A stretch of 62,906 nucleotides of DNA, filler included, from Globobulimina sp. (GCA_003354225.1; 17 parts of 17 records of this genome joined end to end with filler, not necessarily neighbours in it); one strand, 5' to 3'; positions 1 to 62,906 are shown, counted from the first letter of the whole stretch. A program made the numbers and translations. Notes: generated from the letters alone by a model not told the origin.

Positions 1-119
1 AATAAAGAACTGGGAACAATCATGTTTGTGGATTTAGATGATGCAAAAGCCAGCAATAAAATTAATAATGATCCAAATGTTGTGGAATCACCATTATTGA
101 CCATGTTATTGCGTGCAGT
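1..119. repeat. 119-bp direct repeat, identical to 3491..3609 (terminal overlap of contig 1)
   Basis: aataaagaactgggaac...ttattgcgtgcagt occurs at 1..119 and again at 3491..3609. Confidence 0.97.
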
Positions 120-394
120 TTTCAACAAAAAGAAATCAAGGGTTAGAAGATAACTAATTTAAATTTATGTCTATACTCTATAATATTATGTATTTTTATA
201 TAGTACATTGTTTTTTAAAATCCGTAAATTTGTAATTTATTTTGTTAGGAGATGATATTTTAAAATTAAAAAAAAAAACACGTCATTCTAAAGTTTTAGA
301 ACAAAACTGCTTTGGCAAAATTAAATTAAATCAAGACGTAAATCCGATTCCAGACTCACAGATTGCTGTAAAGTGTAAACTCATCAGTGGATCA

Positions 395-832
395 ATGGAC
401 AAATTGATACAATTCCGTTCATACATTTCAGAATTGTCTCCAGAAGAATATAATACATTCATCGAATCATTAGACAGGGAATTTTTATCAACTGCAATAT
501 TTGATCATTTTGGTGTGCATTTACGACGAACTAATGACCCCACAAAAATTGAACAATTCAATAATAAATTATAAATAATTATTGAAGATAAAAATATGTC
601 CATCAAAGCATCATCAGTGCTTGACACAATATCAGATTCATTGACGAATAAAATGTTTCAATATTTAGATACCAAATCATATTTACATTTTGAAAGATGC
701 AGCAGATCATTATTTATTACAGCTAGCAATCCCTCTCAAATATCGCACTTTAATTTGGCATCATACGTTTCATATTGTAAAAGAAATGATTTATTCGTTG
801 ATATTATTACATTTTCAGTTTTTATAACATAG
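395..832 (+). pseudogene. F-box-like protein, interrupted by an in-frame TAA and truncated
   Basis: ORFs 242..574 and 596..832 are in the same frame, separated only by TAA at 572-574. The motif LDTISDSLTNKMFQYLDTKSYLHFERCSRSLF resembles an F-box. Confidence 0.45.
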
Positions 833-1651
833 TGCGGAGCAACAACCACTGAGAAATTGTTCCGCTTTGACTGGATCATCACTGTGTTCTTCACCACCTT
901 TTAAATTATATTTCTTCCTGGAAAACGCATGAATTTGTTTGTCATGTTATATTTAACATACTTTTTCAACGGTTCTGGTGTTATGTCCACCATCCCAGAT
1001 ACAACGTGATCGACTTGCTGTTGTGATGATGTATGTGCCATTATTTATTATCATGCAACTGTGTCCGTGTATAATTTCTTTATTCTATAATTATTTTACT
1101 ATTTCATAATTAAATCTATTAATATAGTAAATTATTTCATAATTTCATAATTAAACAAACCACCATATGCATCGTTTTATATAAATAATGTCCATTTTAC
1201 CGATTTCACGTTTGGTCCTTCTATACAAACAAAAGCAAATTTATTTATATTTTTTGTAAGAAATGATTTATACCAATAACATTTAACAAAGTTACAAATA
1301 TCAGTTCATGATGAATTTTCTTTCTGTAAATCTTGATATTGATATCCAAAAACAGCACCATAATCCCATTTAAATTCAGGTAATATATGTTTTAATGGCT
1401 AGTTGGTTGTCATTGCATATCAATATTTCCATTGGAATTTCCCAACGCCATATGCATGTCAATGATAATTCATCGTAGATTCATAATTAAATTATGAAAA
1501 ATAATAAATATAGAAATACTATGATAATTATTCGCTAAATTTGTGACACATCGCTAAACTAATTCTACAAAGACTGCAACATCAACGACACCAAAACTGC
1601 ACAACAATTACCACATTCAGATTACCACCAATCAAATAATTGAAATAAACA

Positions 1652-3609
1652 ATGATACGACCGCACAAAATCCGATCAAGAGAGAAATCTAATTTTGTGA
1701 GCAAAGCATTTAACAATCTTACGCGAGGTGTCACAGCACGTAATAAGAAAAGCGATGACCGTTTCGATTACAAAAAAGGTAAAAGAGGTAATACAAAGAA
1801 AACATTGTGCATCTTGTTATTAGTGATTTGTGTAACAATATTTTCTGTTGGAATGATTATTTCGTATACAATGGGTTTCGGAAAACAGATTGCATCCGAT
1901 CGGGATTTAAATAAAGTAGTACAACTGTTACGTAAATGGGAATCAACAAAGATATTTTCCGTAGCGGTGCGTGGCAAAGATGAATATCCAAAAAAACTGA
2001 GTGAGGAACTTTGGCTCTTACTACATAATCACTGTGAGTTACCTCACGCATTTAGAGAGGAAATGTTAGCTTCACATGGGACATCTACATTTATATCCAA
2101 TGTGCATAGTCTTATTGAATCGTTAGCTGCAAGGAAACATTTACCTGATTTCGATCCAGGAACAGTTGTCTTGAGAAAAGATGGTACAATGATAAATTTA
2201 GAACCATTGACACAAAAAAGTATTGGGAGAAAAGGAGTTGATTGGACTGATAAGTGTATTCTGCTCAAATCCATCTATAAACAGTCCAAAGCTCTGGATT
2301 TAAACAGACAGAGAGAAAATAATTATTTCGATGTTACCAACAAACAACAATGGGAAAAAAATAAAGTCAGAGCATTTGTTAACAATAAGCATTTAGACGA
2401 AGATGTTTGGAGTTTGTTGAAACATATCAGAAACAATGATGGAAGAAGAGAAAGTGGCAGTTTTTTGAAGGAGACATTCCAACTCTCTCAACACTTACTG
2501 CAAAAACATTGTAAAGCCGCTGTTAAATTTGCTGAACAACATGGCAACAATGAAGAAGGCTTTGATGGTACTTTGAATATTGATATGTTGATGGCATTCA
2601 TTGCTAGCGGTGCTGACATTGAATTTCCAGATGATTTCATGATAGTTATTGATAAAAATGGAGAGTTAGCAGGAATTCAACGAGCAACTATGCCGTCAGA
2701 AGAGGAGCAGCTATTATCTGTGGATTACATGACGTGTCCTTTCATTGATAAAGTTGTATACTACAAAAATGGCAAATTAGCAGAACAAGTGACTGATGCA
2801 CTGGATGCATTGAGAGATTATAATATCTATGCGTTTGAAAGCAAAATGGATATTTTAATGCAACAAGAATGCAGCAATGTGTTTAGAAAATTGAGAGGTC
2901 ATACTTATGATGCAATATTCCGTGGGAACTTATTAAGTTTTTCCACTAAAATTATTAGGAATGAATACATTTCCGAAGAGCCGTACATGATTAGTTTACA
3001 AGGTGGAATATTGCAGTATCATGAGATCAAAAAAGATAAACTGTTCGATATGAATCAAGTATTTAAATGTAGTTTGATTACAGAAATTGCTAAACACGGA
3101 CAGCAAATCGATGATTCCTCAGAAATTATTGAGAAAGAATTTGATCCATTGGCGGATACAAAAGATAATCGCATATTGAATGAAGAAATGAAACATGTCG
3201 AACAGGAAGAAAAAGAACAAAGAAATGGTGAAGATTTAAATGATATCAAGCAGCGTTTTAAAGCAATTACGTTGGATGCAAATATAATTTTAGAGCATGC
3301 TTTAAACAAAAAAAAAATAAATTTCAGGAGAGTATTAAGAAAGATTTTAGATTTGTATCACAGCACAGATTTTAATGAAATGAATGCTGAGAAAGTGGAA
3401 AAATTATTGAACGAAATTGAGCAGTTAATATTTTTCTTCATCAAAGACGATTTCAAAATGCCTGATAAAATCAATATTGTTGTTGATATCAATAAAGAAC
3501 TGGGAACAATCATGTTTGTGGATTTAGATGATGCAAAAGCCAGCAATAAAATTAATAATGATCCAAATGTTGTGGAATCACCATTATTGACCATGTTATT
3601 GCGTGCAGT
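1652..3609 (+). CDS. Type II membrane protein of unknown function with about 4 divergent internal repeats; continues across the contig overlap into 120..153 (663 aa total)
   Basis: Long ORF with a basic N-terminus followed by one TM helix (LCILLLVICVTIFSVGMIISY). Joining via the 119-bp overlap gives ...LLRAVFNKKKSRVRR* with TAA at 151-153. Confidence 0.8.
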
Positions 3610-3709
3610 NNNNNNNNNNNNNNNNNNNNNNNNNNNNNNNNNNNNNNNNNNNNTTAATTAATTAANNNNNNNNNNNNNNNNNNNNNNNNNNNNNNNNNNN
3701 NNNNNNNNN
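3610..3709. other. Artificial contig spacer N44-TTAATTAATTAA-N44. Also at 7319, 11027, 14735, 18443, 22151, 25858, 29565, 33272, 36978, 40684, 44388, 48092, 51796, 55500 and 59204
   Basis: Identical 100-bp spacer with stops in all six frames, 16 copies, separating contigs of 3609-3603 bp. Confidence 0.99.
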
Positions 3710-4446
3710 TGAATGAGGAATTATTAAATAAATTGAGGGAACTTTGTGTAATGTTTATTGGCACTAAAAATTATCATAATTTTACGCGAAAAACGCATCC
3801 AAAGCAGGACAAAGCAAAGCGATTTATGCATTCCATTGATGTCATGACAAATGACGATTTGATTGTGGATAATGTCCAATATTTACAATTTGAGATTCAC
3901 GGAAGTTCATTTTTATATCATCAAATTCGAAAAATGATTGGTTTGTTGGTCACTTTAATGAGAAATATAAAATATGAATATGGTGAATGTCATGTCGACG
4001 TCAGTGATGGTAAAAAATTAGAATTAGAAGAAATTGCTTTTAGTTACAATTATAAAATGGCAATTCCTTTAGCTCCATCACAGGGATTATACTTAAAAGC
4101 AGTTCATTTCGATGAATATAATGAAAAATGTATCCGTGATGGACATGACTGGAAACAATTAAAATTCGAAAAATATGAAAATGGCACAAATAAATTTATA
4201 ATCGAGAAAATTATACCTTCCATTACAAGCTATGAAATAAATGAAGCCAATCCATTGCAAGCTAATCAGTTTGCATTTTGGTTATTTTTATTGGAAAATG
4301 AATTTAAATTTGAGATTGTTCAAATTACAAAAGAATTACTTCGAAAATTAAAAGATAAAGGAATTCAATATGTCACTGCTGGCAATAAAAACGAATCCAT
4401 TGATACTTTCTATAAAAAAATGATTGACAATAAAATCACAAATTAA
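3710..4446 (+). CDS. tRNA pseudouridine synthase TruA/PUS1 family, C-terminal part (5' truncated)
   Basis: Motifs GTKNYHNFT, IHGSSFLYHQIRKMIG and PLAPSQGLYL are typical of TruA-family C-terminal domains. Confidence 0.9.
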
Positions 4447-4696
4447 CTCAATCTTAATCACTAACTTACTATTTTGTTTTTTTGTTTTGTTTGATTTAAT
4501 ACTTTTTTAGCAAGGAAGAAACGAATATGCTGAGTCGATCATTTTTTTAGCCTTACCTGAAAATGGCAATGTTTAACAGACAATTTTAATGAACAAAGAG
4601 AGTAGAGTTTGAAAATGGACATCATGGTACTTCATATAAGTATTTTTCATTTAATCCATCATTTCTGTATTAACCATAATATAATATAAATCAAGG

Positions 4697-5831
4697 ATGG
4701 GTAGCGGTATATAATCAGCAATCAAATACATTTATATGTAAAACATGGAAAAAAGAAACCTTTCAATTGACATTATCTGAGACACAAACTGCAATAAAAC
4801 GATACAATACAAACAGAGAATTAATACCAAAATCAAAATTAAATCAGCAAGCAATCGTTGAATTTAATGACAAAAATAACGATGCGCTCATTAAACAATG
4901 TGAACTAAACTGGATGGCACAACATCAACCATTGATTTTTAATAAAAAACAAATAATTATTGATTTAGGTCAAGTTGAAGCAGACTTACTCTTTCAGCAA
5001 ATACAAAATTTTGAAAATAAATTTCAAAATAAATTCAATAAAGATATATTTGGTGCCCTTGCATGGAATGGTTGTATTTCTCGGTGGAATCTCTTCATCA
5101 AATTCTTGAATGATAAATATTCAGCAAACTATGGTATAAATGCTGAAGAAAAGGGAAACAATGACAATAATTCCACATTAAAAGATGCGAGAGACGCTTT
5201 ATATGAATTTGGAAAGACTTTAGGCCGCGTCATATCTTATAGAGCTTTGGCATTAACACAATCTGAGTTTGAAAGCATCAAAGAATTGAATGAAATCGTA
5301 CCGACTGGACAGTTACGAGCATCTTTAAAAGAAATGAAAGATATCGTCGATAGGCATGGTGTGACCAGAATAACTGTGGCAAGATTATACATATCACATT
5401 TATCAGCATGGATAGGATTGGATCCATCATTATCATTACATGATGACTGTGAGACTGCTCTATGCATAGCACAAACATATATGAATGAAAAAAATAAGAA
5501 ATATGTATATTTATTTGAAATGGATGTAGCTAAAATTATGTGCATCGGTTTTAAAGTGGTTGATGTACAACATGAATAAGGTTTGGTGGATGAAACATTT
5601 GCAAATAAAAAAAATCGGAAAAAAGGGAAACAAAGCGATCGCTGGTTTGGGCACAATGGTGTTTGGTTTGATGCGTATGATCCACGAACAGAAAGGCAAT
5701 TATTATTTTCGATCCCGTTTTTCAAACAAAGATGTAGAAAAATTACAGTTTTAAAAAAAAACGTAGAATTATTAAAGAAAATTGAACCGTTTAAAATAAA
5801 ACAACAAGCTTTAAAAGATACTTGCGAATGA
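4697..5831 (+). CDS. Hypothetical protein (probable short first intron; in-frame TAA at 5577-5579 or a 33-nt intron)
   Basis: ORFs 4767..5579 and 5583..5831 share a frame. An upstream ATGGGTAGCG|GTAT start is at 4697. Confidence 0.5.
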
Positions 5832-8738: not shown

Positions 8739-11026
8739 ATGTTATCGTTGTCGTTGTCGTTGTCTGTAATTTTGATTTCATTTTCATTGTTATCATTACA
8801 AGTTGATGCAAATTGTAATCTATTCGACGTCGACGAAGACGGATCAAAGTCAAACCGACCGAGGTATATTGACAGTGAATCAGAAAGCAGTCTCTTGAGA
8901 ATGTGTAAAAAGAAGAGTGAGTCTCAGTCATTATGGGAGAAATATCAATGTGAATATAATGAAAATAGATATGGTATTAAGACATGTTGGGCGCAAAGAA
9001 GAATGAGTCACTGTGAACCTGGTAATCTTTTGGGTGTAATCGTTTTGTATCCCGGCTTTTCGGCGTGTCCTAATTATTATAATGAGATTGCTAAACTATT
9101 ACAAGCAAAGTGTTGGCATGTTTATCAACCGGGAATTGTTGGTCATGGTTATAATTATTGCTTGAATGACACCTCTTGTTCGGGTGGAAAATATAACATA
9201 ACCAAGCTACCAATCTCACGGCAAGGCTATGTCGATTATGTGTCGATGATGATTGATATTATAAATGACCAAGTATCCATTGTTAAACAATGCGAATTGA
9301 AAGCAAATAGCTTGTATGATATGAATAATTTGCAAGTAGCGGTTGGTGGTTTATCATTTGGCGCAAACTTAGCAGCTGCCACTGTTTTGTTTTCTGGCCC
9401 AAATTCTGTATTTACTAAACAACTTTTACTGTCTCCGTCATTTATTGGCGATATCGGTTCCATTGTAGGTCTTTCGTGGTGGGATAAAAATTTTAAGATT
9501 TATGGCTGTTTTTTAGATAAATCTAAACATCAAAGTATTTGGCAATGTCTATCAAAATATTTATCTGATCATGATCATGATTATGATTCTAATAATAATA
9601 ATAATATAATGACATTTCTAATTAGTTTATCACAGATCGGTGTCGGTGTCGATGTGGATGCAGTGAGCAGCGGCTATGAATCATCTCTAATAATAGGCCA
9701 CCTTTTGGCGGATTGGATGACTCAAAGTTCAACAGCTGCAGATATTGAATTGATACAAGATCTCTTAAATTCAGAGATATTATGGGACGAATATGCTGCA
9801 GATAGTGGCTGTCGATTTGATGTTCTATATAGAGATCGTGGCGGTTTTTGTCAATTTCCTGTGCGCCAATTCGTTGCTATGCTGGCATTTAATTATTATA
9901 TGATGCAATTACTAGTTGATATGGATAATATTAATATTAATAAAGGCGTGGAAACATTATTGATATCCACTGAAAGGGATGGCCAATTTGTGAGTGGTTT
10001 CTCTGTTGATTATTTACGACTATTTTATGGCAGTAATGATGTGTTGCGGGAGAAGAGTCGTAATTGTGTGTGGTTAGTTGCAGATGAATGTAAAGTAGAC
10101 ACTTTTTCAGGTGTTATTGAGAGTGACTGTGGTGTGCCACATGCATTTATTTCTGTGGTCGGCAACGTAGGTTTTAATCCTTATTATTTGTATTGGAAAG
10201 AAACAGCATATAATGGAATAACTGCATGGCTCAATAATGATATAGATATCGATGGTAGTAAAGGTAAAGATTTTCTGGTTTCAGGATTGCAGAACTGGGA
10301 TGGTTCTCGACATCAATGTGTTGAGTTGGATTTATTACATCCTCCGCAAACTTTATTATATACAAATAATAATATACGTGATACACTGAAGAAATTTCAG
10401 AACATTGATGTGGATAAATTGCTTGGTATTAACCGTATTAATAATATTAATAATATAAATAATATAAATAAGATTGCAATAAATAGCATAGATATGTCGG
10501 TCAATATTCTGACATTATTGAAAGTCATACAGTTACAGTTCCAAAATGACGCATATGATATTGGTGATATTCAGGACAAACATATAAAAGATTGTGTTGC
10601 AAACAATTATAAAGTTAGCGATTGGTTATGGAAATTATTTGACATTAAACTAAATTCTTCAGATTCAGATTCAGAGCGGGAGAAATTGACTAATTTTACA
10701 AACACATTTACAGAGATTAGCCATTTGTATCATAAATGTTTTGATGTTGATATGGATATCGATTCAATGACAGATTTATCGCATTTTTTTAATGTAATTT
10801 TAGATGAATTATTAGATGATAATGACAATGAAAATCAATTTTTGAATGATTTTAAAGGTTTGGCACAACAAATATTGAAAATTGTTTTCCGAATACAAGA
10901 ATTTAATGATTTGAATGAGAAACAAAAGAAACAAAAAGTATTATTTATTGGTGATCCGGGTACCGGTAATTATGATGCAGAGAAACATTTGATCGTAATT
11001 GCATCAATTAGTCTTAATTTTATATT
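8739..11026 (+). CDS. Secreted alpha/beta-hydrolase-like protein (3' truncated)
   Basis: Signal peptide; YPGFS oxyanion-like motif; VGHG; GLSFG nucleophile elbow (GxSxG); candidate Asp (ERDG) and His (VPHA). Confidence 0.65.
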
Positions 11027-11126
11027 NNNNNNNNNNNNNNNNNNNNNNNNNNNNNNNNNNNNNNNNNNNNTTAATTAATTAANNNNNNNNNNNNNNNNNN
11101 NNNNNNNNNNNNNNNNNNNNNNNNNN

Positions 11127-30559: not shown

Positions 30560-32812
30560 ATGTCAACTAAAGCAGATAATTGTTCATGTGGCAAGTGTAA
30601 ATTCGTCAACGTTAGAAATCATTGTATAACAAATTGTTGTGAACATGTTCAGTTAGTTTATGTCTCCAATGGTAAATATTTCAAGATGAATAAACATACA
30701 TTAGAATATACTCACAAATACATTAATATCGATAATTCCAAAATAAGTAAACAATGTATCAATATTGACGAAGAATTAAATATAGCATATATCTGGAATA
30801 TAAAATTTGAACCGTTGCAACAGAATTTCGTACTAAAATTTAAAAACAACAACGCCGAAGCAACAGAAAAGAAACTAAAACACACAGAAGAGTCGTATCT
30901 AAAGAAGAAAGTGGATGATTTGTTATCTTTTATTCTCAATCATTGCCATGCACAACAATATGACATGGATAGTGTTTCTCTATTATTACAGCATAAAATC
31001 CAGCAAATATTCAAATATCACATTGAAGAGAACCCAGCGATCACCGATGAAAAAACTGTAATAACATCCTCCAAATCGAAATTATTTTTTGTAATCGCAT
31101 TAGATTTATGCTATGAAAATATCATAAAAGCCAACAAATACGACATAAATTATAGTTTAGCTCGATTGGATAAAATAATTCTATATAGAATCAATTATTT
31201 TACTGTGACGCGAACGTTTTTTGGCCAGACACTCGAAATAAATCCGAGTACAAATAATTTCAATCAATTGGCGTGGACTGAGATATATTTTGATAAACGA
31301 TGCGAAAATTTGCTATCGATGCCTCTTGAAAATGATAACATGCCATTTATATTTCGATACATTGTCGATGATATGAAGCAAATATTAGGTGATAAGCAGT
31401 GCAGTTATGACATTGAGCAGCAATTGAATATAAAACGTCTATTGATTGAAAACAGAAATAAAATGTTAACATTGGCCACTAATTATAACAGAAACAGCAA
31501 CGCTTTGTATCTACTTAACAATATCGACAAATGTACTGCAAAAAAGCAAACAAAGCCAAGAAAAATCAAAATCAAAATGCAAAATACATCATCGAGTTGG
31601 ATAAAATGCCCATCTTCGAATTCTCACTCATCAGACAACAATTATAACGATGAAAAAACAGAAATAACTGAAATAATACAGAGTTATTACAACGATAATC
31701 GGTCATTGATTCCATGGATGAATAAGATAAATCACATAAATATAAATACTGTAAATTCAACGCATTCTTTCAATAAAACTGTACCTATTTACAATCAGAT
31801 CACCGGTGGTAAATGTTATGAAATTGAATCGAGAGCAAAAACATCGCAAATCCATACAACTTCATATTTTTCATCGTATTTAAATTATGTTAAGAACATA
31901 TTTTATTTGAACTCAGCGTCCATTTACGAGAATATATTCATATATTTAGATGGTCAAAGTATACTAAATGGACTTATGTGTACTTGCAAAAAATTGCATT
32001 ATTTTAAATTTATGGATGAATCCAAAATATGGCATATGTTGTTACAGCGCGATTTCCCCAAATTGTATAAGAGAAAGTTTATGTATTTGTACATTCCGTA
32101 TGTTAATATTCGATATGCTTCGTTTGATGCCACCATTTTGCAGCGAGCGAAGGAGAAACAATTATATTTCAATAAAATTAGAAGCGATAAATTCTGGATG
32201 TTACTATTTAATTTACGCGATATCAATTTAGAGGTAATGGAAAATGATGAAATTGAATGTTTATGGAAACAGATTGAATGGAAAGATTTATTGGTTGGTA
32301 AGAACAATGATTATGGGTTTGGAGCATATAGGAAATTGACAAAATTGCGATTTGATCGATATATTATGTCATTTGGCGAGGATACATTGCCGACGAATGA
32401 GGTGATTGACAATTTTTGTAACGCGATTCGTAAAAACATGCGATCTGGAAAAGCCACCATTTATTTAAATCCATGGATTTCGAAGAAAAGATTGGTTCAA
32501 TGGACGCGAAGACGCATTTTATGGCTAAGTCAATATAAGCAATGTTGGGCTGTATCGGCATCGAATGAATATTTTGCGGAGGAAATGAAAAAAATACCGC
32601 AAATTATTCAGTTGATTGGAAAAATACAATTTCAAAATGGCAGACGGTTCAAACCACGGCCTGGCTGGGTACCTTTTCTACAGACATTTGATCCGACTGT
32701 TTCTACGTATAAGGACGTCAAAGATGGCTGGTTCCAAAAACAGTTTCTCTTGAATGAGATGGAAAATCGATTGAAAAATATGCGAAGTTTGATTCAAATT
32801 GTCAGGCAATGA
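30560..32812 (+). CDS. 750-aa protein with an internal F-box-like motif
   Basis: Intact ORF; SIYENIFIYLDGQSILNGLMCTCKK...IWHMLLQRDFP is F-box-like. Confidence 0.6.
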   Translation: MSTKADNCSCGKCKFVNVRNHCITNCCEHVQLVYVSNGKYFKMNKHTLEYTHKYINIDNSKISKQCINIDEELNIAYIWNIKFEPLQQNFVLKFKNNNAEATEKKLKHTEESYLKKKVDDLLSFILNHCHAQQYDMDSVSLLLQHKIQQIFKYHIEENPAITDEKTVITSSKSKLFFVIALDLCYENIIKANKYDINYSLARLDKIILYRINYFTVTRTFFGQTLEINPSTNNFNQLAWTEIYFDKRCENLLSMPLENDNMPFIFRYIVDDMKQILGDKQCSYDIEQQLNIKRLLIENRNKMLTLATNYNRNSNALYLLNNIDKCTAKKQTKPRKIKIKMQNTSSSWIKCPSSNSHSSDNNYNDEKTEITEIIQSYYNDNRSLIPWMNKINHININTVNSTHSFNKTVPIYNQITGGKCYEIESRAKTSQIHTTSYFSSYLNYVKNIFYLNSASIYENIFIYLDGQSILNGLMCTCKKLHYFKFMDESKIWHMLLQRDFPKLYKRKFMYLYIPYVNIRYASFDATILQRAKEKQLYFNKIRSDKFWMLLFNLRDINLEVMENDEIECLWKQIEWKDLLVGKNNDYGFGAYRKLTKLRFDRYIMSFGEDTLPTNEVIDNFCNAIRKNMRSGKATIYLNPWISKKRLVQWTRRRILWLSQYKQCWAVSASNEYFAEEMKKIPQIIQLIGKIQFQNGRRFKPRPGWVPFLQTFDPTVSTYKDVKDGWFQKQFLLNEMENRLKNMRSLIQIVRQ

Positions 32813-52749: not shown

Positions 52750-55499
52750 ATGGGAGCATCATTCGGCGATGTATGCGATGGAACATTACCACAAACATCC
52801 AAATGGTACCAAATATTCCAAGTGGTAACAGCTAGCCTTGAAACTCTTGCCATACTTTTATTCATTTACATCCATCGAAAATCAAAATATTTGCATCAGA
52901 CAATTTCTAGCTCCCCTTTGAACAATGGCTTATTATATGAAGATGATGAATCTTATGATGATAATATCGAGGAAGAAATCCTCATTCATCATACCAACAA
53001 CAATATAACTTGCACGCAGCCAAAAACAATTGCAAATTCCATTGGATATAAATCGCCAAAAAGTCAAAATTTAAACGTGGTGGATATGACTTCGGACGAA
53101 TCGCCAATCTCTAACTTATTTGACATCGATTCTGGTCGGAGAAAATTGAATAATTTTTCATTGGATGACAACGACGAAAGCAATGAGGAAGATTGCGAAT
53201 ATTATAATGAATCGCAAAATAGATATTGGAAAATGAATATTGATGAAAAGAGCAAAAAACGCACAAGGAACACATCGTTGTCATCATTATCATCCTCATT
53301 AACTTCAAGCTCATCCTCTTCAGCAACGTATAGGAAAAATAGACATAAAAAACATCGGGAAACATTAACAATGATTGAAGCGAACACCGACAATTATCGG
53401 ATATTTTTTATTTTAGTGCCTATATACTACCAATTTTTAGCATTGCTATGTGTATATTGTGTTTACCGCATGATATATATGACATTATTATGCGTTGACA
53501 TTGGCTCAGACTTTGGTGAATATAGCAATCCAGTCAATGGCTATGGCACTGAATACATTAAGCCGAGCGGTGTGGATCAACGACAAATTATAAATTTGAT
53601 TGGTTTATCATTATTTGAGTATATTGAGTCGACCATAAATCATATTGTAACCTTCTGGTTTTTGCAGCCATCCTCAGGCGTCAAAGCATTGAAAATATCC
53701 TTTATTCCCGCGTCTATCATAGGTTGTGTCGATTCTATCTGTACCATACTTGCTATCATTCATGTAAAATATAGGAATATATACTTGATATTCCATGTAA
53801 TAATGTTAACATTTTACGTGTTGATATTTTTTTATATGATTTTAAATCAAAAACTTCGTTGGAGGTTATTTTATTTTTACATCATATTTTTTATTGTATT
53901 GTATGTATTATATTCTTTGGGCGATGCTTTTGTAATGATTACCGAGGGCGAATTGGATGGATGTATGGATGAATTGGCACAGATTATGTTTTCAATTTGC
54001 ATTCCAATTATTTTAGCCTTGCTGTTATTTGATGATAGCTCGTATTGGTTGCAGTTATCAACGGAGCTAATTGGGGATAAAAAAGATTTTATCATCGATC
54101 TGGAGCAGACAAACACTACCAAAACATCCAAAACACTGCAGAGTGGCCATGGTGATTTATTTGTGAATAGCAAAGCATTGAAACAAATATTGGTTAATAA
54201 AAATAACGTTACCAGGCAACAGCAATTGCAAATGGATGATGATGAAAACGAGAATGACGAGGAATGTTCCACTACGATCTCGGTAACCAAACTTTTATGG
54301 GGTCCAAAATTGGCACAATCAGTTGGGAGATTTGATAACAAAGCAAACTTTGACCGGGTTATTGACCAGCTATCAATGACCATTCCTGTAATAAAAAGAT
54401 CAGAAATTGAAATAATCGGTGATAATAATACATCATTAATTGGATTTGGCTCATATTCTGCAGTAAAAAAAGCAAAAATATTGAAAACTGGCGAATTGGT
54501 TGCAATTAAATCTTTGTATTCTTTCGATGACGAAAATTATAAATATGTGGTGGAATTTATGCGCGAAGCATTCCTGTCACAACGATTGAAACATAGCAAC
54601 GTTGTTGATTTTAAAGGTGTATTAGCAGACAGACCTCATTTATGTTTGGTGTACGAGTATATGACAAATGGCTCAGTCTTTGAGTATTTAACCAAAGACA
54701 GAATAAAATATCGACAGCATTTTTCGAAATATTATAAATCAATCTCATTGTCAAAAAGAATTAAATTTGCAATTGATGCAGCAAAAGGAATACAGTGTCT
54801 ACATTCACATAACATTATCCATAGGGATATAAATTGTAGAAATTTATTAATTACCACTACTAATAACTATATAAATAATGAAAGTAATCCAAATATAAAC
54901 ATAATAGTAAAAGTTTGTGACTTTGGCACAGCGCGACAAATATCTAAGTATATCACGCCAAGCTTAACATATACGACATTTACTGATGAAAAGGATAAAG
55001 AAAAGGAGGATGTAAATATTATAAATGATGAGGAGGATGAAGATGTGAGTAATAATATGAATGACATTGCCATTGCTTCAACCTACAATATGTTAAACAA
55101 ACAAATGACGACAGGTATTGGCACAGTGGCTTATATGGCGCCAGAAATATTAAAATATGTAGATTTTACAAAGAAATTAAAAAGAGAAAATATAAGAGAC
55201 AAAATTGAGTACGATTTTGCTGTGGATGCCTTTAGTTTTGGTGGCGTATTGTTTGAATTAATGGCATCAAAGGAATTGTTTGAAGATTTACAAACTTCAA
55301 AGGAGGTTCAACAATTTGTGCTGTCTGGCAAAAGGGAGAAAATACCGCAGAATGTTATTAAGCTATTAAATATTCCAAATTGCTATTCTCAACTAATGAA
55401 TCAATGTTGGACTCACTATTCCTCGCAGAGACCGCATTTTAAAGACATTATTGTGAGATTACAAAATATTGCTCGGAAAGCCAGGCAACAAAAAAGACG
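52750..55499 (+). CDS. Multi-TM (about 7) receptor-like TKL protein kinase (3' truncated)
   Basis: About 7 hydrophobic helices, then IGFGSYSAV, VAIK, HRDINCRN, DFG, GTVAYMAPE, DAFSFG and CW...RP. Confidence 0.9.
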
Positions 55500-55599
55500 N
55501 NNNNNNNNNNNNNNNNNNNNNNNNNNNNNNNNNNNNNNNNNNNTTAATTAATTAANNNNNNNNNNNNNNNNNNNNNNNNNNNNNNNNNNNNNNNNNNNN

Positions 55600-58500
55600 G
55601 AGACCAACATCCCGCGCGACCAAATCAGCAACGAAGTGACTGTCTATGAGCGCACGCCCAAATTAGATACGTTGCCACCCGGCTCCCGGGAACCATACAT
55701 CGCGCACGATTTAGGCAACGCCACTCCACGTCATATACGTATGACTTTGTACAACATCCCATTGTCCGGCGACACCGCCGAGAAATGCGCATTAGCATTG
55801 GCCGCAGTCATCCAACCCATTGCTAATATTGGTTTGCAGGAGAAACCGATCGAAATTGTGAATATGGGCAGTGAGGGACCTATCCGTTGTGTCGGGTGTA
55901 GGGCGTATATGAATCCGCATGTTTTATGGATTGCGGATGGAACGCGATGGATTTGTAACTTGTGTCAGTTAACCAATGATTGTCCAACATGGTATAGGAA
56001 GAACTTGGACGGCAAATATCAACGAAGGGATCGCCTGGAAAGGCCGGAGTTGCATCGTGGAAGTGTGGATTATGTGGCACCCAATGATTTGGTGAAACAA
56101 ATGCAATATGAGCCGGGCATTTTTTTTGTGATTGATGTGAGCTGCGTGGCGTTGAAAAGAGATTTGGTGCAGTTGACGGTCGCTACGATCAGGGATTCAG
56201 TGATGGAGTTGAGGGAACAGTATAGAGTGGACGTGGAGGAAAAGAGTGCGGATGTCGACGGTAATAAATGCATGTTAAGTATATAAGTCTCCTGGCACAA
56301 TCTGGCATTTTCTTAGTCGGGTTTACTTGAGTGATTTTTGTCGAGACCATGGCTCACTGTGTCAAATACTGTCAATGCTGCATAGCAGCAAGACCAAAAA
56401 CGTACGTCACAGTTAACTTTTTTGGCTTAGTTTCGTTTCGTTTCATTTCAACCATTAGCAAAGTTTTTGGTTAGCTAGAGTGGTTTTGAACCTAGTATTC
56501 GAAGTTGACCTAAAAAGTTAAATGTAATTTTGTTTTGATACGTCACTTTAGTTGGAATATGATCGTCTCACTTTTTGTATATATATGTGACGTAACGCAT
56601 TGTTGAAACATATCACGTCACATTTTTGAAATTACACTGTGACGTTTTTGGTCTTGCAGCTGCTATGTTGGTGAGTCTTTCACAAAAAGTGTAACTGTTT
56701 GACCTTTTATATTTTTGTTGGGTAGTTTCAATTTTTGTTGATAGTTTTGTAAAAAAAACGCCTGTCCAATAAAATGTAGAATTTATATCAAAAAATATAT
56801 TGAATTTTTTTTCTGATAAAAACTCGATAACCACATAAATTTTAAAATCAATTCTTGTTGGTTCATCTACGCAGATTACGTGTCGGTTTTTTAACCTATG
56901 ACAATAAAATCCATTTCCACGCCTTATCCAATGGAGCCTTACACGTAATATCCGAGGTGAAAGACCCCTTCGTGTCGCTACCCGACAGCGAGATCTTAAT
57001 CCCCTTAATGGACGACAACAAATTCGCGGAATGGGAGCGTTTATTATTACGCGTACCCAAACTGTTCGAGCACAACCGGTTAACCCCAGAAAGCGAAAAC
57101 AAATCCTGTCTCGGCGCTGCATTATACTCCGCCACGCAGGTCCTCCACGACTGCGGTGGCAAAGTCATCGCGCAACAAACCAGTTTGCCCAACATCGGCA
57201 TCGGTGCCTTAAAATTCCGCGATGCGGTCGAATTGCATGGCAGCGACAAGGAACGCGAACTGTACGTGTCGTCCAACCCATTTTACCCAAACCTAACCAA
57301 TGAGTGTGCCACCAACTTCATATCAGTGGACATCTTTTGCTGTGCGTCTGGTTATTGCGACTTGGCATCCATTGGGGAAATGTCTCGCAAGACTGGCGGA
57401 CAGATCTATTACTACAGCAATTTCAACAAAAACAAAGACGGATTGACCTTCACCAACGATATGCGTACTAATTTATTGCGCAAGACGGTGTATCGCAGCG
57501 TGATGGCGATCCGCGCGAGCAAAGGGCTGGAAGTGGTGGATTACTTTGGCAACTTCTTTCTGACTGAAAACCAGGAGATCCAGTTGCCGGTCGTGACGAG
57601 CGACACTGCCTTGGCTGTGAGCATCCGACATTATGAGAAGTTGAACAGTGGCACGGGAGACGAGGATGGCGTGCCGGCGCAGGTGGCGGCGATGCGGAAT
57701 AAGCACGCTGCCCTTCAGGTTGCTATGCTGTACTTGGACGGGAAGGGCATGGTTTACATCCGGGTGCATACGTTGTCGATGCCGATTGTACGGCGCATTG
57801 CCGACGTGTTCCGCTGTGTGGATATGGATACGGTCTTAAATGTGTCGCTCAAGCAATGCGCGCAGGAATTAGGTATGTAATGCATGTGTATGTATTGTTG
57901 GTATGTAATGTATTGTTGTTGTTGTTTAGTATCGGCAGTGTCGTCGACGATGACTGTGGCCGCAGCGCGGAAGTCATTGGTGTCCGCCTGCGTGGATATA
58001 TTATTTGTATATCGTCGATATTGTGCGTCAAACAACGCGCAGCGACAGTTGGTATTGCCGGAAGCGTTGAAACTTTTGCCTTTGTTTACATTGGGTCTGT
58101 TGAAGAATGGCTTGTTATCGGACGGCGTGTCAGTGGATGAGAGGGCTTATCATATATCGTATTCGTTGCATATGCCTTGTTATCAGTCGTTGACTTATAT
58201 CCATCCATATTTATATCCCATGCACAATGTGTTGGTGTCGAATAAGGAATGCATTGTGTCTGAGAGTGGCCGCGTGTTGTTGCCCAAAGCAATTACGTTA
58301 AAGTATCAAATGTTGAAAAATTTCGGGTTATATGCGATGGATACTGGGAGGAAAATATATATTTGTATTGGACCGGATTTATCGTCTAAATTATTTGAAC
58401 AATGTTTTACGCAAAATATGCATCATAAGGAAGAACGGATTGAGTTGAAACAAGATTTTGAAGATGGAAATATTAATGATTTGGGCTATCGGTTCTCGCT

Positions 58501-58747
58501 CATTTTGGATGAGTTACGCTATGATAAGCCGTATTGGCTAAATATTGAGATATTGTTGTTGCCAAATACCAAGGATCATGATTCGATATTAACCATGGAC
58601 CAACATGAATTTTTAAAACATTTAATCGAGGATGCTTCGAGAATACAAACAAGAAATACAAATTCAAAAAATCCTGCTAATATGTCTTATGTTGATTTCT
58701 TAGTCTATATTCATAAGGAGATTCAAAAGAAATTTATTGATCTCTAA
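55600..58747 (+). CDS. SEC24: COPII coat subunit Sec24 (5' truncated); long intron about 56270-56874 and intron 57873-57929
   Basis: DLGNATPRHIRMT; PIRCVGCRAYMNP...WICNLC zinc finger; RPELHRGSVDY; FVIDVS; LPNIGIGAL; TGGQIYYY; LVLPEALKLLP; MSYVDFL. Confidence 0.95.
56381..56667. mobile_element. MITE-like inverted-repeat element inside the Sec24 intron
   Basis: catagcagcaagaccaaaaacgtacgtcacag (56381-56412) versus the reverse complement of 56637-56667, catagcagctgcaagaccaaaaacgtcacag. Confidence 0.65.
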
Positions 58748-59443
58748 CTTGTTGTTTTCTTTCTTTCCATTCGACCAATTACATTCCTATTATACTTTTC
58801 AGCACACATCGTCACCATTTGTCTTGCGATAACATTCGACTCAAAGGATAACCCAAGAAACTTTTTGTTAAAAAGTTTTCACTTAATATTCGTATCATGG
58901 CAGCAAAAGCCAAGTTTCATGAAACCATATTGAATTATCATATTTGTGGGATGTTATGACCCAAAAATAAAATATAAATAGTTAAGTATTTATGCGAGTA
59001 CAAAACAAAACAAAACAAAACCATATAAATCATGGCGTTCATGGTTGCGTTATCTATATAAAAATACCTCCGTCTCATAGCGCGTTTAAGTCTATGTCTG
59101 TTTTGGATCATTTTCCAGTATAATAAAATGAGGTTTTCTCATGATTTCCCATTTTTGTTTCTGTTGCCTCACATTAACAATACTTAACTATATTTTATAA
59201 ATTNNNNNNNNNNNNNNNNNNNNNNNNNNNNNNNNNNNNNNNNNNNNTTAATTAATTAANNNNNNNNNNNNNNNNNNNNNNNNNNNNNNNNNNNNNNNNN
59301 NNNCCCGTTTACGCCACTTAGTGGAGTAAAATAGAAACGAAAACGGAAACGAAAAACGGAAATCTCAGCAATGAGAAAAACAAATGATTACTATAAATTA
59401 ATTAATTCACATATAATACACACACACATTAAAAAACAAAATA

Positions 59444-61159
59444 TTAAAATGTCCCAGAAAACGTACAGTTTGAAAAGGAACAATTTGAAAATGAACTTGC
59501 AAATTGACTTTGTTGTTTATTCGGACTTCTTTTATTATTGTTATCCATAATAAAATCTGCATCTTTTACTGCTTGAAAACTAACAATGTTTCCAATTCCA
59601 TCATCATCACTAAATCCAATGGCATTATTTAACATATTTGCATCTTTTCTTTTGTTTCTAATCGAATTATCATAATATCCCTCTGCTAAATACCCCGCCC
59701 TCACAATACTGCGACGCAGATGTACGCCGTATAGAATGTCCCGCATATAGCCACCATTTGGGGATTCCCAACCAATTTGCGATAGTCTTTGGATAGTCAT
59801 AAAACCAATTCACTCCAAGCGGCTGTCCATGAAATTCATAATAACCACTAAATTTATTCTTCTTTCGTCTCCAAAATAATCTCGATCCATACGAATGGCT
59901 TCGGTTTGCCCAAAAACGCTTTGTTTTTTTCTTGTAATCCACGATGCGATCAACTGAGACCTTATGGGTCACCATAAAATTTACATATTTCTTCGTCTTC
60001 GCCTTCCAATGATGAATATGTGCAATCTGTCGCGAATCGAACTGTTTTGTCTTTTCTATGTATATATTTATCAAAAAAACAAAGTCCGAATATATAAATA
60101 TGTACAAACTTAACTTGTCTCAAATATATCAACTTTAATTTCCTCGCATTTTCTATGATAAATTGACGTATAATCAATCCCTCGAAAGCAGCCACATAAT
60201 CCCATCGTTAATGCGATCTTTTCATTCTTATATTGACTCTCATCCGCATCCAATAAAAAACGTTTAATGTCATCTGCATTAAATACTGGCCGCTTAATAA
60301 TAATATGTCCCTCCATATATCTCTTGAGCCATGCTTTTGCTTTGTACCATTTATTTGTATCGATACCATGATAAACCAATAAAATGCTCTTAATTCCACT
60401 AAAATATGTATACATTGACGTTGCCGCAGCTCCCTTTTCTTTCATAACCTCGAACCACATCATAATGGTCTCCTCATTCATAGATAAGTTCCATTTATTG
60501 ATCCAATTTTGATATTTGCTAAAATGTTTATTGTATTTTGCCTTTGATAGTTTCGGCAATAAATCCAAATTTGACTGTTCTTTCAATCGATTTAATTCTT
60601 CTTCGCCATATTTACTTTGATCTGCTTCGTTTACTTCGTTTGGTGGTTGGTTTGGTGGCACTTTTGGCGGTTCAATGGATGCATTGAATGATGGTTGATT
60701 TGCGTTGATTTGCTTTGATGTTTTTGTTCGTTTTGATTTGGATTTTCTTGATTTGGAGTGCTTTGATTTGGATTTGTTTGATTTGGATTTGTTTGATTTT
60801 GATTGATTTGATTTGGATTGCTTTGATTTGATTGTTTTTGATCTCCTTTTTATTTCTTTTGATCTTTTTTTGATTTGTTTTGATTTGTTATTGATAGTTT
60901 TGATTTGTTTGGATCTGTTATTTCTTTGTTTACATTTTTTGTTGATCGTTTTTGATCGTTTATGTCCAATATCTGACTGTTTTGTAATAATATCGACATC
61001 CATTGTGAATATATTATGCCAATTCAGTTTATATTGATTTGAATGAATTGTCTGATCAACCGGCCGTATGATGGCATTTTGCAGAAGCGGTTGATTTGTG
61101 ATTGATGCCATACCATTCATTGATGGACTTGGTGTGGCACCAAAACACAACGAAGTCAT
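59444..61159 (-). mobile_element. Crypton-like tyrosine recombinase gene with an intron (60056-60114) and a frameshift/deletion near 59690
   Basis: LLPKLSKAKY; ATSMYTYFSGIKS; KIALTMGLCGCFR (catalytic R); KAKT; QPLGVN; YAGHSIRRTSA (HxxR); AEGYYDNS (catalytic Y). Confidence 0.88.
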
Positions 61160-61455
61160 GTTGACCTAAATCGGAGTGTAAATGTGAAAGTGTGTAAGTT
61201 TGTTTATGTTTACTTAGGTTTTTTGAGTCTGAAAGATGACATCAACCGACATGCTAAGAAACGTTATAAATCGATTAATTGACATAGAATGGACAAATTA
61301 ATTAAATGGACAAACTTATTATACATGGAATGGACAAACAAATTCAATGCGACAAATCAAAAACGAAATCAACAAACCACAATAAATAAGCAATATTTTA
61401 CAAATATACAAAAAATAAGCATTACTTTATTAATTAATACAAGTTAATAAATTAT

Positions 61456-62004
61456 TTAATTACAATTAAATGTCTTTACGACATGGATACTAATCTCTTT
61501 TTTTTTATTTAAATCATCAAATTTCTTCTTTAATTCATCATAAGCCACACCTTTATATTCTAATAATAATTTATATCTTTTACGCGCAGCATCAACACCT
61601 TTCGCTCTCATCATTGCCTTATCCATGAATGCTGCAAAAATATCATTAAAATCATCCATAGTCACATTCGTCGACGCTGCAATATCACGCCAATCTTTTT
61701 TAATTACAACCAATTCTTCATTGGCATCTGCTAATTCATCCTTTACATCATATAAATGCTGATCCAACACCGCAATCTCTAATACTTGGTCATCAATCTG
61801 CAACTGCGCAGTCTCCAATTCTTCTTTTAATTCACCAATATAATCATGCAAATCTTGATTTTTTCTCTGCAATATAGCCATCGGACTATGTCTTGCTTGT
61901 TTCACCTCATTCTCTACACCATGCGCAGGAGCATAACCTAATGGCACCGCTGTTAATATCGCTAATGGAACCGCGGCATCTTTCTCTTTTTTTACTTTTG
62001 CCAT
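61456..62004 (-). CDS. 182-aa coiled-coil protein upstream of, and co-oriented with, the recombinase
   Basis: ATG-started intronless ORF with heptads (LQRKNQDLHDYIGELKEELETAQLQI). Confidence 0.6.
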   Translation of the reverse strand: MAKVKKEKDAAVPLAILTAVPLGYAPAHGVENEVKQARHSPMAILQRKNQDLHDYIGELKEELETAQLQIDDQVLEIAVLDQHLYDVKDELADANEELVVIKKDWRDIAASTNVTMDDFNDIFAAFMDKAMMRAKGVDAARKRYKLLLEYKGVAYDELKKKFDDLNKKKEISIHVVKTFNCN

Positions 62005-62368
62005 ATTTAAGGGAGTTTATTTAATGGGAGTTTGTTTAGGGAGGGTTTTTAAGAAGATTAGTGAGTGTTTATTTGTAGTTTACTAAACTTTTCATCTGAA
62101 AACATGACACTACAACAAACATAAATGCAATCACAAATAAATCAATGCAAACACAAAATCAAATCAATGCAAACACAAAATCAAATCACAATTCATCCCA
62201 TGAAACCAATCAATAACTATGAAATTATAAATATGTACAACAATATTTATAATTTCAAAAATATCACACGAATATTATTTTCGTATTATTATATGTCCGA
62301 TGGATTCACTGTAGGGTTTTTTTTTGGGTAAAATATTGTAACCATATTCAGTTGGTATCTTGACTGGT

Positions 62369-62464
62369 AACGTGTTTCCAGAAACAAAGTTTTTCACGTC
62401 GAGGGGGCGCCAAGTGTGGGGGGGGAGCCCCCAAGGCCAAAAACTGTGTTTTCGGAAACACGTT
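62369..62464. repeat. Imperfect 25-bp inverted repeat enclosing a G/C-rich stem
   Basis: aacgtgtttccagaaacaaagtttt ... aaaactgtgttttcggaaacacgtt (3 mismatches), with inner gggggc...gccccc. Confidence 0.8.
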
Positions 62465-62730
62465 TATTGCCAAGAAAAAGTAAACAAATTGGATACATAT
62501 TTTTATTCCAAAAAATGACCAGACAGTGAATTTGGTATCATCAAAATAATAGAAACTAATATATGTTTTCGGATTTTTGATTGAGTTTATGGGAAAAAAT
62601 GGAAATACAAACATTACATCTATGAATTCTCTCTATAATAATCCATCCATCCAACGAGACACAAACGATCGAGGACATTAAGCTCAAAGCCAAAGTTTTT
62701 TTCTCTTCGCAGCATCAAAAACAATGGATC

Positions 62731-62906
62731 GAGAAGCCGCCGCATTATGCTATTTATTATGGATTTATGGTGGCGAAGCCGCATTATGCTATTTATTATG
62801 GACTTATGGCGGCGAAGCCGCCTCATTCTATTCATTATGGTATTTATGGCGGCGAAGCCGCGGCATCGTGTTGATTATGGTATTTATGGCGGCGAAGCCG
62901 CCGCAT
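62731..62906. repeat. About 40-bp tandem array, each unit carrying a GGCGGC-GAA-GCCGCC hairpin
   Basis: GCGAAGC cores at 62773, 62812, 62852 and 62892, and a degenerate one at 62731; runs off the end of the window. Confidence 0.92.

Follow-up and report, generated by a model that had tools for sequence, protein, structure and literature searches.

Which kind of element lies on the last contig of a 62,906-nt window of Globobulimina sp. DNA (GCA_003354225.1), and is the copy found there still functional? The window, by which we mean this whole stretch, consists of 17 separate contigs of about 3.6-3.7 kb each, arranged by descending length with N44-ttaattaattaa-N44 spacers between them. Its last contig carries pieces of a tyrosine recombinase (YR) gene. 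An earlier note, made from the sequence alone, had taken the entire contig for one Crypton-like element with a recombinase in three open reading frame (ORF) pieces, an intron, a co-oriented coiled-coil ORF, a long inverted repeat, a hairpin array and a downstream palindrome. Our analysis indicates that the contig quite probably harbors a Crypton-type element in inactivated form. Elements of this type are DNA transposons of eukaryotes with a YR only; the copy comprises a two-exon recombinase gene and a probable second gene and is bordered by unrelated flanks.

Cryptons are among the rarest and least understood transposons of eukaryotes. Little information exists on where they end, which sites they target and how wide their host range is, and the names of their groups come from a few host taxa. 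They are DNA transposons of eukaryotes with a YR as enzyme (PMC3212892, PMC13465315).

Three minus-strand segments form one tyrosine recombinase gene

A profile hidden Markov model was built from 20 full-length relatives and run on all 133 six-frame stop-to-stop segments of the contig. The 20 relatives had been chosen from 158 proteins; they are 300-520 aa long and contain G-H-x-x-R-R-[ST], followed further downstream by W-[KR]-S...Y. Three minus-strand segments matched successive parts of the profile: 60113-61165 at profile positions 6-164 (121.6 bits, E 3e-37), 59673-60119 at positions 158-274 (57.9 bits, E 7e-18) and 59447-59809 at positions 289-360 (19.8 bits, E 2.7e-6). The next in rank reached just 3.0 bits (E 0.33). 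These matches indicate that the three segments are colinear parts of a single YR gene, confirming the assembly proposed in the earlier note. Searched alone, exon 2 matched 59 of the 158 proteins; with the C-terminal half of P0010, which had first been found via exon 1, it scored 84.2 bits. The coordinates of all features are compiled in Table 1.

A HMMER search with exon-1 residues 185-349 retrieved 732 proteins at E<=1e-3, of which 99 reached E<=1e-10; the top match had an E-value of 6.7e-28 and 34% identity. All 21 full-length relatives scanned contained PF00589 (best E 6.6e-18), and 4 of the 21 also matched a SAM-like N-domain family. The gene thus belongs to the tyrosine recombinase superfamily by homology to PF00589-bearing proteins, in agreement with the identity suggested before. 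The family consensus keeps all six catalytic residues (R, K, H-x-x-R, W, Y). A word-index homologue search returned nothing for exon 1 (residues 185-349) or, among longer proteins, for exon 2, and phmmer searches of both exons against PDB sequences gave chance-level rows, the best being a Rab GTPase (E 0.011).

Compared with solved structures, the family profile hit the Cre recombinase of phage P1 best (E 2.3e-6); the motifs L-R-x-x-E, T-K-T, G-H-x-x-R, G-G-W and x-Y-I were in register. The Cre residues that face the profile in these motifs are R173, K201, H289/R292, W315 and Y324. An AlphaFold model of exon-1 residues 185-349 was all-helical (pLDDT, the predicted local distance difference test, 79.3). 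In a Foldseek search with this model the 20 best rows shown (ranks 1-31) were all Cre or Tre, as weak matches with E-values of 0.038-0.43, and sequence identity to Cre in the fold alignment was only about 9-10%. The chemistry is presumably the same as that of Cre. In contrast to Cre, the gene on this contig is a eukaryotic one with an intron and exists in multiple copies, and a lox-like site was not identified.

Exon 1 begins with an N-terminal extension that includes a basic low-complexity stretch rich in lysine and serine. This stretch is built from 15-nt tandem repeats (Tandem Repeats Finder, TRF: 60732-60842, period 15, 7.4 copies) and is without counterpart in the profile of the relatives, the match of which begins at residue 181. 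It may act as a nuclear-localisation or DNA-binding tail. At the other end of the gene, the extreme C-terminal tail (59447-59500, minus strand; N-x-x-N-C-T/S-x...) follows a variable linker and is conserved between the window copy and the insect relatives described below.

Table 1. Features of the contig under study, with positions counted from the first letter of the window.
Feature	Position	Strand	Description
Contig under study	59304-62906		3603 bp; last of 17; G+C about 0.32
High-copy 3' flank	59304..59424		GAAACG-type simple repeat; TRF row 59334-59362; depth 265 vs 12-18 in adjoining bins
YR distal part	59444..59686	-	Other frame; AEGYY, N-C-x-F tail, stop TAA at 59444-59446
Deletion scar	59687..59694	-	8 nt where sister contig has 52; frame shift, then stop 59670-59672
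YR exon 2, proximal part	59695..60055	-	In frame with exon 1; beta-hairpin Lys, His and Arg II of GHSIRR
Intron	60056..60114	-	59 nt, GT...AG, phase 1, spliceosomal-type; coding strand starts GTTAAG, ends AG
YR exon 1	60115..61159	-	349 codons up to stop within intron; N-terminal extension, SAM-like core-binding domain, box-I Arg
LLPKLSK in exon 1	begins 60560-60562	-	SAM-like core-binding domain
Basic K/S-rich low-complexity stretch, exon 1	60698..60964	-	89 residues: 29 K, 8 R, 19 S
Catalytic codons	Arg I 60182-60184; Lys 59997-59999; His 59736-59738; Arg II 59727-59729; Tyr 59675-59677	-	
17-nt unit	61288..61345		Three direct copies in ORF spacer, 130-190 nt upstream of YR start codon; TRF row 61288-61321
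Upstream ORF	61456..62004	-	182 codons, ATG to TAA, co-oriented, 296 nt upstream of YR start
22-nt tandem repeat	62124..62188		3 copies, 93% matches, TRF score 109; upstream of coiled-coil ORF
Imperfect foldback	62304..62531		About 228 nt; arms 33 + 48 nt, 76% and 73% complementary
Satellite-like tandem array	62726..62906		39-40-nt unit, 4.1 copies, 88% matches (TRF); cut by contig end

The recombinase gene contains an intron

Contigs from three runs (X1, X2 and X3) of one sample in one study were aligned to the contig under study; X3 covered 2 of 30 bins, and no RNA source is listed for the sequence. X2 record 11 (1303 nt, approx. 93% identical) runs along 59756-60055 and then 60115-61141. 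It omits exactly 60056-60114, and the joint is unambiguous. This contig represents a paralogue, either in the form of a spliced transcript or as DNA that lacks the intron. Whichever its origin, the comparison indicates that the 59 nt behave as a discrete intron, so that the GT-AG intron of the earlier note is real. Removal of the intron joins the frames of exon 1 and exon 2. The second and third segments lie in different frames, and no intron connects them.

The intron-equivalent position was also located in the relatives. For the 14 nearest of them, 10 called ORFs stop 0-23 residues past this position, one stops about 35 residues past it and one before it. The full-length protein P0010 carries an insert of about 50 residues at this position relative to the insect proteins, and the insect row continues without the insert. 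Read from the proteins, the ORFs ending shortly after the position and the P0010 insert suggest that the intron is conserved in position in the clade of the window protein.

A 44-nt deletion inactivates this copy

X2 record 9, approx. 98% identical over 59431-59686, has 52 letters at the joint 59686/59695 where the window has 8. Relative to this sister contig, the window copy is therefore short of 44 nt. Two bases of the broken codon plus the 52 letters make 18 codons, and base 59686 then becomes the first base of the A codon of A-E-G-Y in the frame of the third segment. The relatives have 17 residues at the site, with the consensus x-x-x-x-L-K-R-x-G-x-W-K-S-x-x-x. Profile positions 275-288, which comprise this conserved Trp box, were unmatched in the window contig, and the second segment (...Y-A-G-H-S-I-R-R-T-S-A-S-Q-Y-C-E-G-G...) and the third (A-E-G-Y-Y-D-N-S...) lie in different frames.

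The short form was also found in X1 record 2 (212 nt, 0 differences, depth 7.5), which crosses the deletion site. As this contig was assembled separately, the lesion is not an artefact of one assembler; both assemblies use the same reads. Of the catalytic set R, K, H-x-x-R, H/W and Y, the window copy has R, K, H and R in place. Its Trp box is deleted and its catalytic Tyr is out of frame behind a stop codon, which makes this copy an inactive pseudogene. The earlier note had overlooked the lesion.

Relatives of the window protein

The full-length relatives are stand-alone proteins of 350-470 aa with their own conserved C-terminal tail and stop. Those with names include four insect proteins, annotated as 'uncharacterized' or 'Tyr recombinase domain', from Trichogramma, Aphidius, Aquatica and Diabrotica, in line with the insect Crypton-type YRs named in the earlier note. 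Further labelled relatives are one protein from a data set of the foraminifer Nonionella stella and one short contig labelled as a Chitinophagaceae metagenome-assembled genome. The 14 contig ORFs scanned were free of reverse transcriptase (RT), RNase H, methyltransferase and DDE domains. The same held for 44 distinct relatives, which also had no DUF3504 and among which were all 16 listed ones that exceed 500 aa. The extra domains of the long relatives were zf-AD, C2H2, THAP, BTB or WD40, which are typical of chimeric insect gene models. PF00589 throughout the full-length relatives and the absence of RT from the 44 agree with a YR-only protein and with the Crypton-like kind that had been proposed. 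When the clade alignment was used for a locus search, neither metagenome nor prokaryote-genome nor IMG/VR viral contigs yielded a relative.

A quick, unrooted maximum-likelihood tree was calculated from 142 rows, namely the window protein and those 141 of the 150 listed matches that covered at least 115 query residues; nine shorter ones were left out. The rows are unannotated relatives and five labelled ones, with no named Crypton, DIRS or phage references among them. The window protein fell into a 14-row clade with a support of 93 in the Shimodaira-Hasegawa-like approximate likelihood ratio test (SH-aLRT), together with P0001, P0002, P0003, P0005, P0006, P0007, P0008, P0010, P0011, P0013, P0014, P0015 and P0126. 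P0013 is the foraminifer-labelled row of this clade and has a long branch. All four insect-labelled rows were placed in a 120-row clade (SH-aLRT 96) on the opposite side of the tree. At the level of protein sequence, the tree shows a distinct sub-lineage, without fixing its rank. With this placement apart from the insect rows, the undescribed lineage suggested in the earlier note is a possibility.

Some insect-side relatives (P0004, P0009 and P0018) are gene models in which two to three YR copies, tandem or partial, are read through in a single frame. The respective genomes may thus contain such elements in tandem arrays.

Comparison with known groups of tyrosine recombinase elements

Insect Cryptons (CryptonI; for example Crypton-1_TC and CryptonI-1_RPro, as named by Kojima & Jurka 2011, PMC3212892) resemble the window gene in its probable architecture, with the YR as sole enzyme and no C-terminal accessory domain. 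The insect-labelled relatives likewise have a SAM-like N-domain followed by the catalytic domain, and they share with the window protein the motif series LLPxKS, G-x-x-R, T-K-T, Q-x-x-G-x-N, Y-T-G-H-x-x-R-R-T-S-A, W-K-S, A-E-G-Y and an N-C-x-F tail. This likeness is one of motifs and architecture, and the insect relatives may belong to the published CryptonI families. The full-length insect-labelled relatives are only 27-31% identical to the window protein, which falls outside their clade and hence is not placed within CryptonI. The window gene further differs from insect Cryptons by its intron, an N-terminal extension of 180 residues and the upstream second ORF.

CryptonA and other DUF3504 elements, including Glomhoppers, are YR-only DNA transposons of eukaryotes, as the window element probably is. 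A further likeness is that intron-bearing copies occur side by side with intron-less ones and that truncation is frequent among them (PMC13465315). The window family differs from this group: DUF3504 was matched in none of the 21 full-length relatives at E<=1 and in none of the window pieces. DIRS, Ngaro and VIPER elements are alike in being repetitive and in encoding a eukaryotic YR, and differ by RT, RNase H and methyltransferase, which were missing from the contig and the 44 relatives. Within the limits set by the length of the contig, no pair of repeats brackets the genes, be it split direct or inverted terminal repeats. None of the papers listed by a literature search deals with Cryptons of protists, Rhizaria, Amoebozoa or foraminifera, which is not a claim that they are absent from print.

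The family is multi-copy in the source sample

The contig was matched by 424 X1 contigs at an identity of at least 85%. They spread over all identity bands, with 112 at 99% or above, 93 at 95-99%, 141 at 90-95% and 78 below 90%. Paralogous pieces cover both ORFs, over which the summed contig depth was 7-39. The family thus consists of repetitive, diverged copies in a sample that may hold more than one organism.

A second ORF lies upstream of the recombinase gene

The co-oriented ORF upstream of the YR gene is a real one, as the number of ORFs of 182 codons expected by chance in the contig is about 0.002. Its structure model consists of two long, coiled-coil-like helices (residues 41-109 and 116-180) predicted at low confidence (pLDDT 63), in line with the coiled coil noted before. 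No Pfam family scored above cut-off and the word-index search found no homologue. An Atlas search gave scores of at most 0.86, with leucine-zipper-type families at 0.82-0.84, which serve as leads only. Depth over this ORF was 11-24, similar to the likewise low 7-39 of the YR gene. X1 record 7 contains a paralogous piece of the ORF with approx. 88% identity, and in one X1 contig 61022 is connected to 61515, the shorter side of the joint being just 25 letters long. On balance we consider it rather likely that the upstream ORF belongs to the same unit as the YR gene. That its product is a dimeric DNA-binding or regulatory partner of the recombinase is a guess. The 17-nt repeats in the spacer between the two ORFs might, speculatively, be promoter, regulatory or protein-binding sites.

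The flanks consist of separate high-copy repeats

The genes and their flanks differ strongly in depth. Compared with the 7-39 over the ORFs, summed depth was about 260-4700 over 62208-62906 and 265 over 59304-59424 (84-4700 for the flanks overall). As the depth of the flanks is roughly ten to several hundred times that of the genes and uneven between bins, they comprise several separate high-copy repeats, and the proposal that the whole contig is one element is not supported.

The long inverted repeat of the earlier note is real. As DNA, the foldback at 62304-62531 folds well beyond shuffled sequences (z -6.09; 0 of 200 shuffles as good). Its summed depth of 460-960, compared with 7-39 over the genes, suggests that it is probably a separate high-copy foldback element or one resembling a miniature inverted-repeat transposable element (MITE).

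The tandem array reaches a depth of about 4700 in the last bin. It had been described as a hairpin array; its tandem repetition stood up, whereas folding of the complete array was indistinguishable from that of shuffled sequences (z 0.18) and it forms only 6-bp G+C stems with a GAA loop. The unit holds GGCGGC-GAA-GCCGCC (62808-62822 and 62888-62902). DNA mini-hairpins of the G-C-G-A-A-G-C type are unusually stable, and those of the satellite could be relevant to replication or to the assembly break.

A metagenome scan with the 18-nt core of the array yielded 96 stretches. Two of them contained related arrays by blastn (L069, 545-1110, and L091, 484-652; 73-78% identity, periods 39-51), both from one metagenome record set, and the others were 21-46-nt matches to the G+C core. 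No YR or coiled-coil homologue was found on L069 or L091. On L091, a gene for a calcineurin-like phosphoesterase (Metallophos, PF00149; 1042-2040) follows about 0.4 kb downstream of the array. The related arrays point to a satellite common to related AT-rich organisms and argue against the array being part of the element, as had been assumed.

The downstream palindrome proved to be an overlapping AT-rich stretch of 17 nt with 76% complementarity, which is unremarkable at 32% G+C. The foldback and the satellite might also be termini of the element that non-autonomous derivatives have in common with it. This possibility was rejected for now, because the flanks were never joined, with no contig connecting the 3' flank to the 5' flank listed among the sample contigs, and because the satellite occurs elsewhere without a YR. 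Most likely, the assembly broke in repeats on both sides.

Neighbouring contigs of the window

Because the contigs are merely joined by spacers, genes on either side of a spacer are unlinked. In tblastn and blastn comparisons the contig under study showed no similarity to the other 16 contigs; only self-matches fell below E 0.1. No Rfam family matched at E<=0.1, and no tRNA was predicted by ARAGORN.

Three colinear ORFs at 55636-58747 (plus strand) represent one gene of the Sec23/Sec24 family, the domains of which are zinc finger, trunk, beta-sandwich and helical. The first ORF is separated from the second by about 570 nt, which probably harbor an intron or a further exon. The G+C content of this contig is 0.45 at 56001-58000, compared with 0.27-0.40 in the remaining window, so that the assembly may contain more than one organism. 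The ORFs at 8739-11078, 30560-32812 and 52750-55551 are long and intron-free, have Asn-rich runs and a low G+C content, and are compatible with an AT-rich microbial eukaryote.

Nature of the element and alternative explanations

By analogy with other Cryptons, the recombinase of intact copies would excise the element as a circle via short direct repeats, and the circle would reintegrate by site-specific recombination. This is the model of Goodwin, as summarised in PMC3212892, and we infer the same step for the window family. The window copy itself would be a dead passenger, since its translation ends before the catalytic Tyr, and it could move only if an intact paralogue acted in trans. The same sample holds at least one non-deleted sister sequence, seen in intron-less or spliced form. 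The coiled-coil ORF would probably travel with the YR as a second gene, and the foldback and the satellite are unrelated high-copy repeats at which the assembly most likely broke.

Several observations weigh against assigning the contig to an inactivated Crypton-type copy. The name Crypton rests on architecture and on unannotated relatives, as the tree includes no named Crypton. Pfam searches with the window's own four ORF pieces gave sub-threshold noise only, and the third segment is weak when taken alone, with one phmmer match of 14.3 bits besides its 19.8 bits to the profile. The library type of X2 is unrecorded, so that the intron-less contig may be RNA or DNA, and the frame of the 52 letters was deduced from their length alone. 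What ties the coiled-coil ORF to the YR beyond this copy is similar depth and the single 25-letter joint. Terminal short direct repeats, which measure 4-6 bp in Cryptons, an empty site or a circle junction were not seen; no end-to-end joint is listed for the assembled contigs of the three runs, and both ends of the contig under study lie inside high-copy repeats. No RT, RNase H or DDE domain accompanies the YR as a further transposition enzyme, yet the contig ends about 140 nt past the YR stop and within repeats upstream, so that for this copy further genes including an RT are possible beyond its ends.

These last points would suit a fragment of a YR retrotransposon of the DIRS, Ngaro or VIPER kind, in which the coiled-coil ORF would be gag-like and RT and RNase H would lie beyond the contig end. 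The order of a small helical ORF followed by a YR resembles the front of some DIRS-type elements, and the 3' flank is high-copy. We nevertheless regard this explanation as quite improbable. The retroelement domains are lacking not only from the 14 contig ORFs but also from the 44 relatives, whose full-length members stand alone with their own tail and stop, and an intron at a conserved position would be unexpected in an element copied via spliced RNA. An integrase of a protist virus, a virophage or a plasmid-like episome is extremely improbable. Eukaryotic YRs do occur on plasmids and in large DNA viruses as well (PMC3212892), and the contig is short and comes from a mixed-looking assembly, in which a neighbouring contig departs in G+C content from the remainder (0.45 vs 0.27-0.40). 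The scan of IMG/VR viral contigs with the clade alignment returned no relative, and a spliceosomal-type intron together with copies diverged below 90% identity fits a nuclear repeat family.

The intron would also fit a domesticated host YR gene, or a pseudogene of one, that is not mobile, and domesticated genes derived from Cryptons are known (PMC3212892). Such an origin is very improbable, given many diverged copies in one sample and a disabling deletion in this copy that is missing from its sister. Moreover, the catalytic residues, which are mostly missing from domesticated DUF3504 genes (PMC3212892), are retained in the relatives, and DUF3504 was found in 0 of 21 relatives. A different objection concerns the lesion. 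The three segments are otherwise stop-free, the C-terminal tail is conserved up to the stop codon, and the contig approx. 98% identical over 59431-59686 has the extra letters, all of which would be expected if the copy were intact and active and the 44-nt gap were an assembly error or a variant within the sample. The X1 contig of depth 7.5 shows the short form without a single difference, as evidence that is not fully independent since the reads are the same, and no X1 contig of the longer form is among those listed. We therefore consider an intact copy unlikely, and an inactivated copy of a Crypton-type element is the explanation we prefer.

Implications for the Crypton family

From its sequence, our verdict is that the window copy is probably a member of the Crypton kind and belongs to a poorly sampled, non-insect sub-lineage. 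A more far-reaching idea, which we put forward as tentative and somewhat doubtful, is that of an unnamed Crypton lineage borne by protists and sister to the insect CryptonI-like radiation. Its marks would be the conserved phase-1 intron, located after the box-I Arg and before the catalytic Lys, the long basic N-terminal tail, and a two-gene unit with an orphan coiled-coil protein that is co-transcribed or co-mobilised. If this were true, insect-type Cryptons would be one branch of a far wider eukaryotic family, or there would have been exchange between protists and insects.

The locus is a useful catalogue entry and no surprise, and it leaves the understanding of the mechanism of tyrosine recombinase elements unchanged. 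Within one sample, one copy has both the intron and the deletion and another has neither, so that the family may still have working members. The clade of the window protein, which stands beside the insect families, consists almost entirely of unannotated environmental or unassembled sequences and includes one labelled as foraminiferal. It would extend the known host range of Cryptons, and the conserved intron would mark the lineage.

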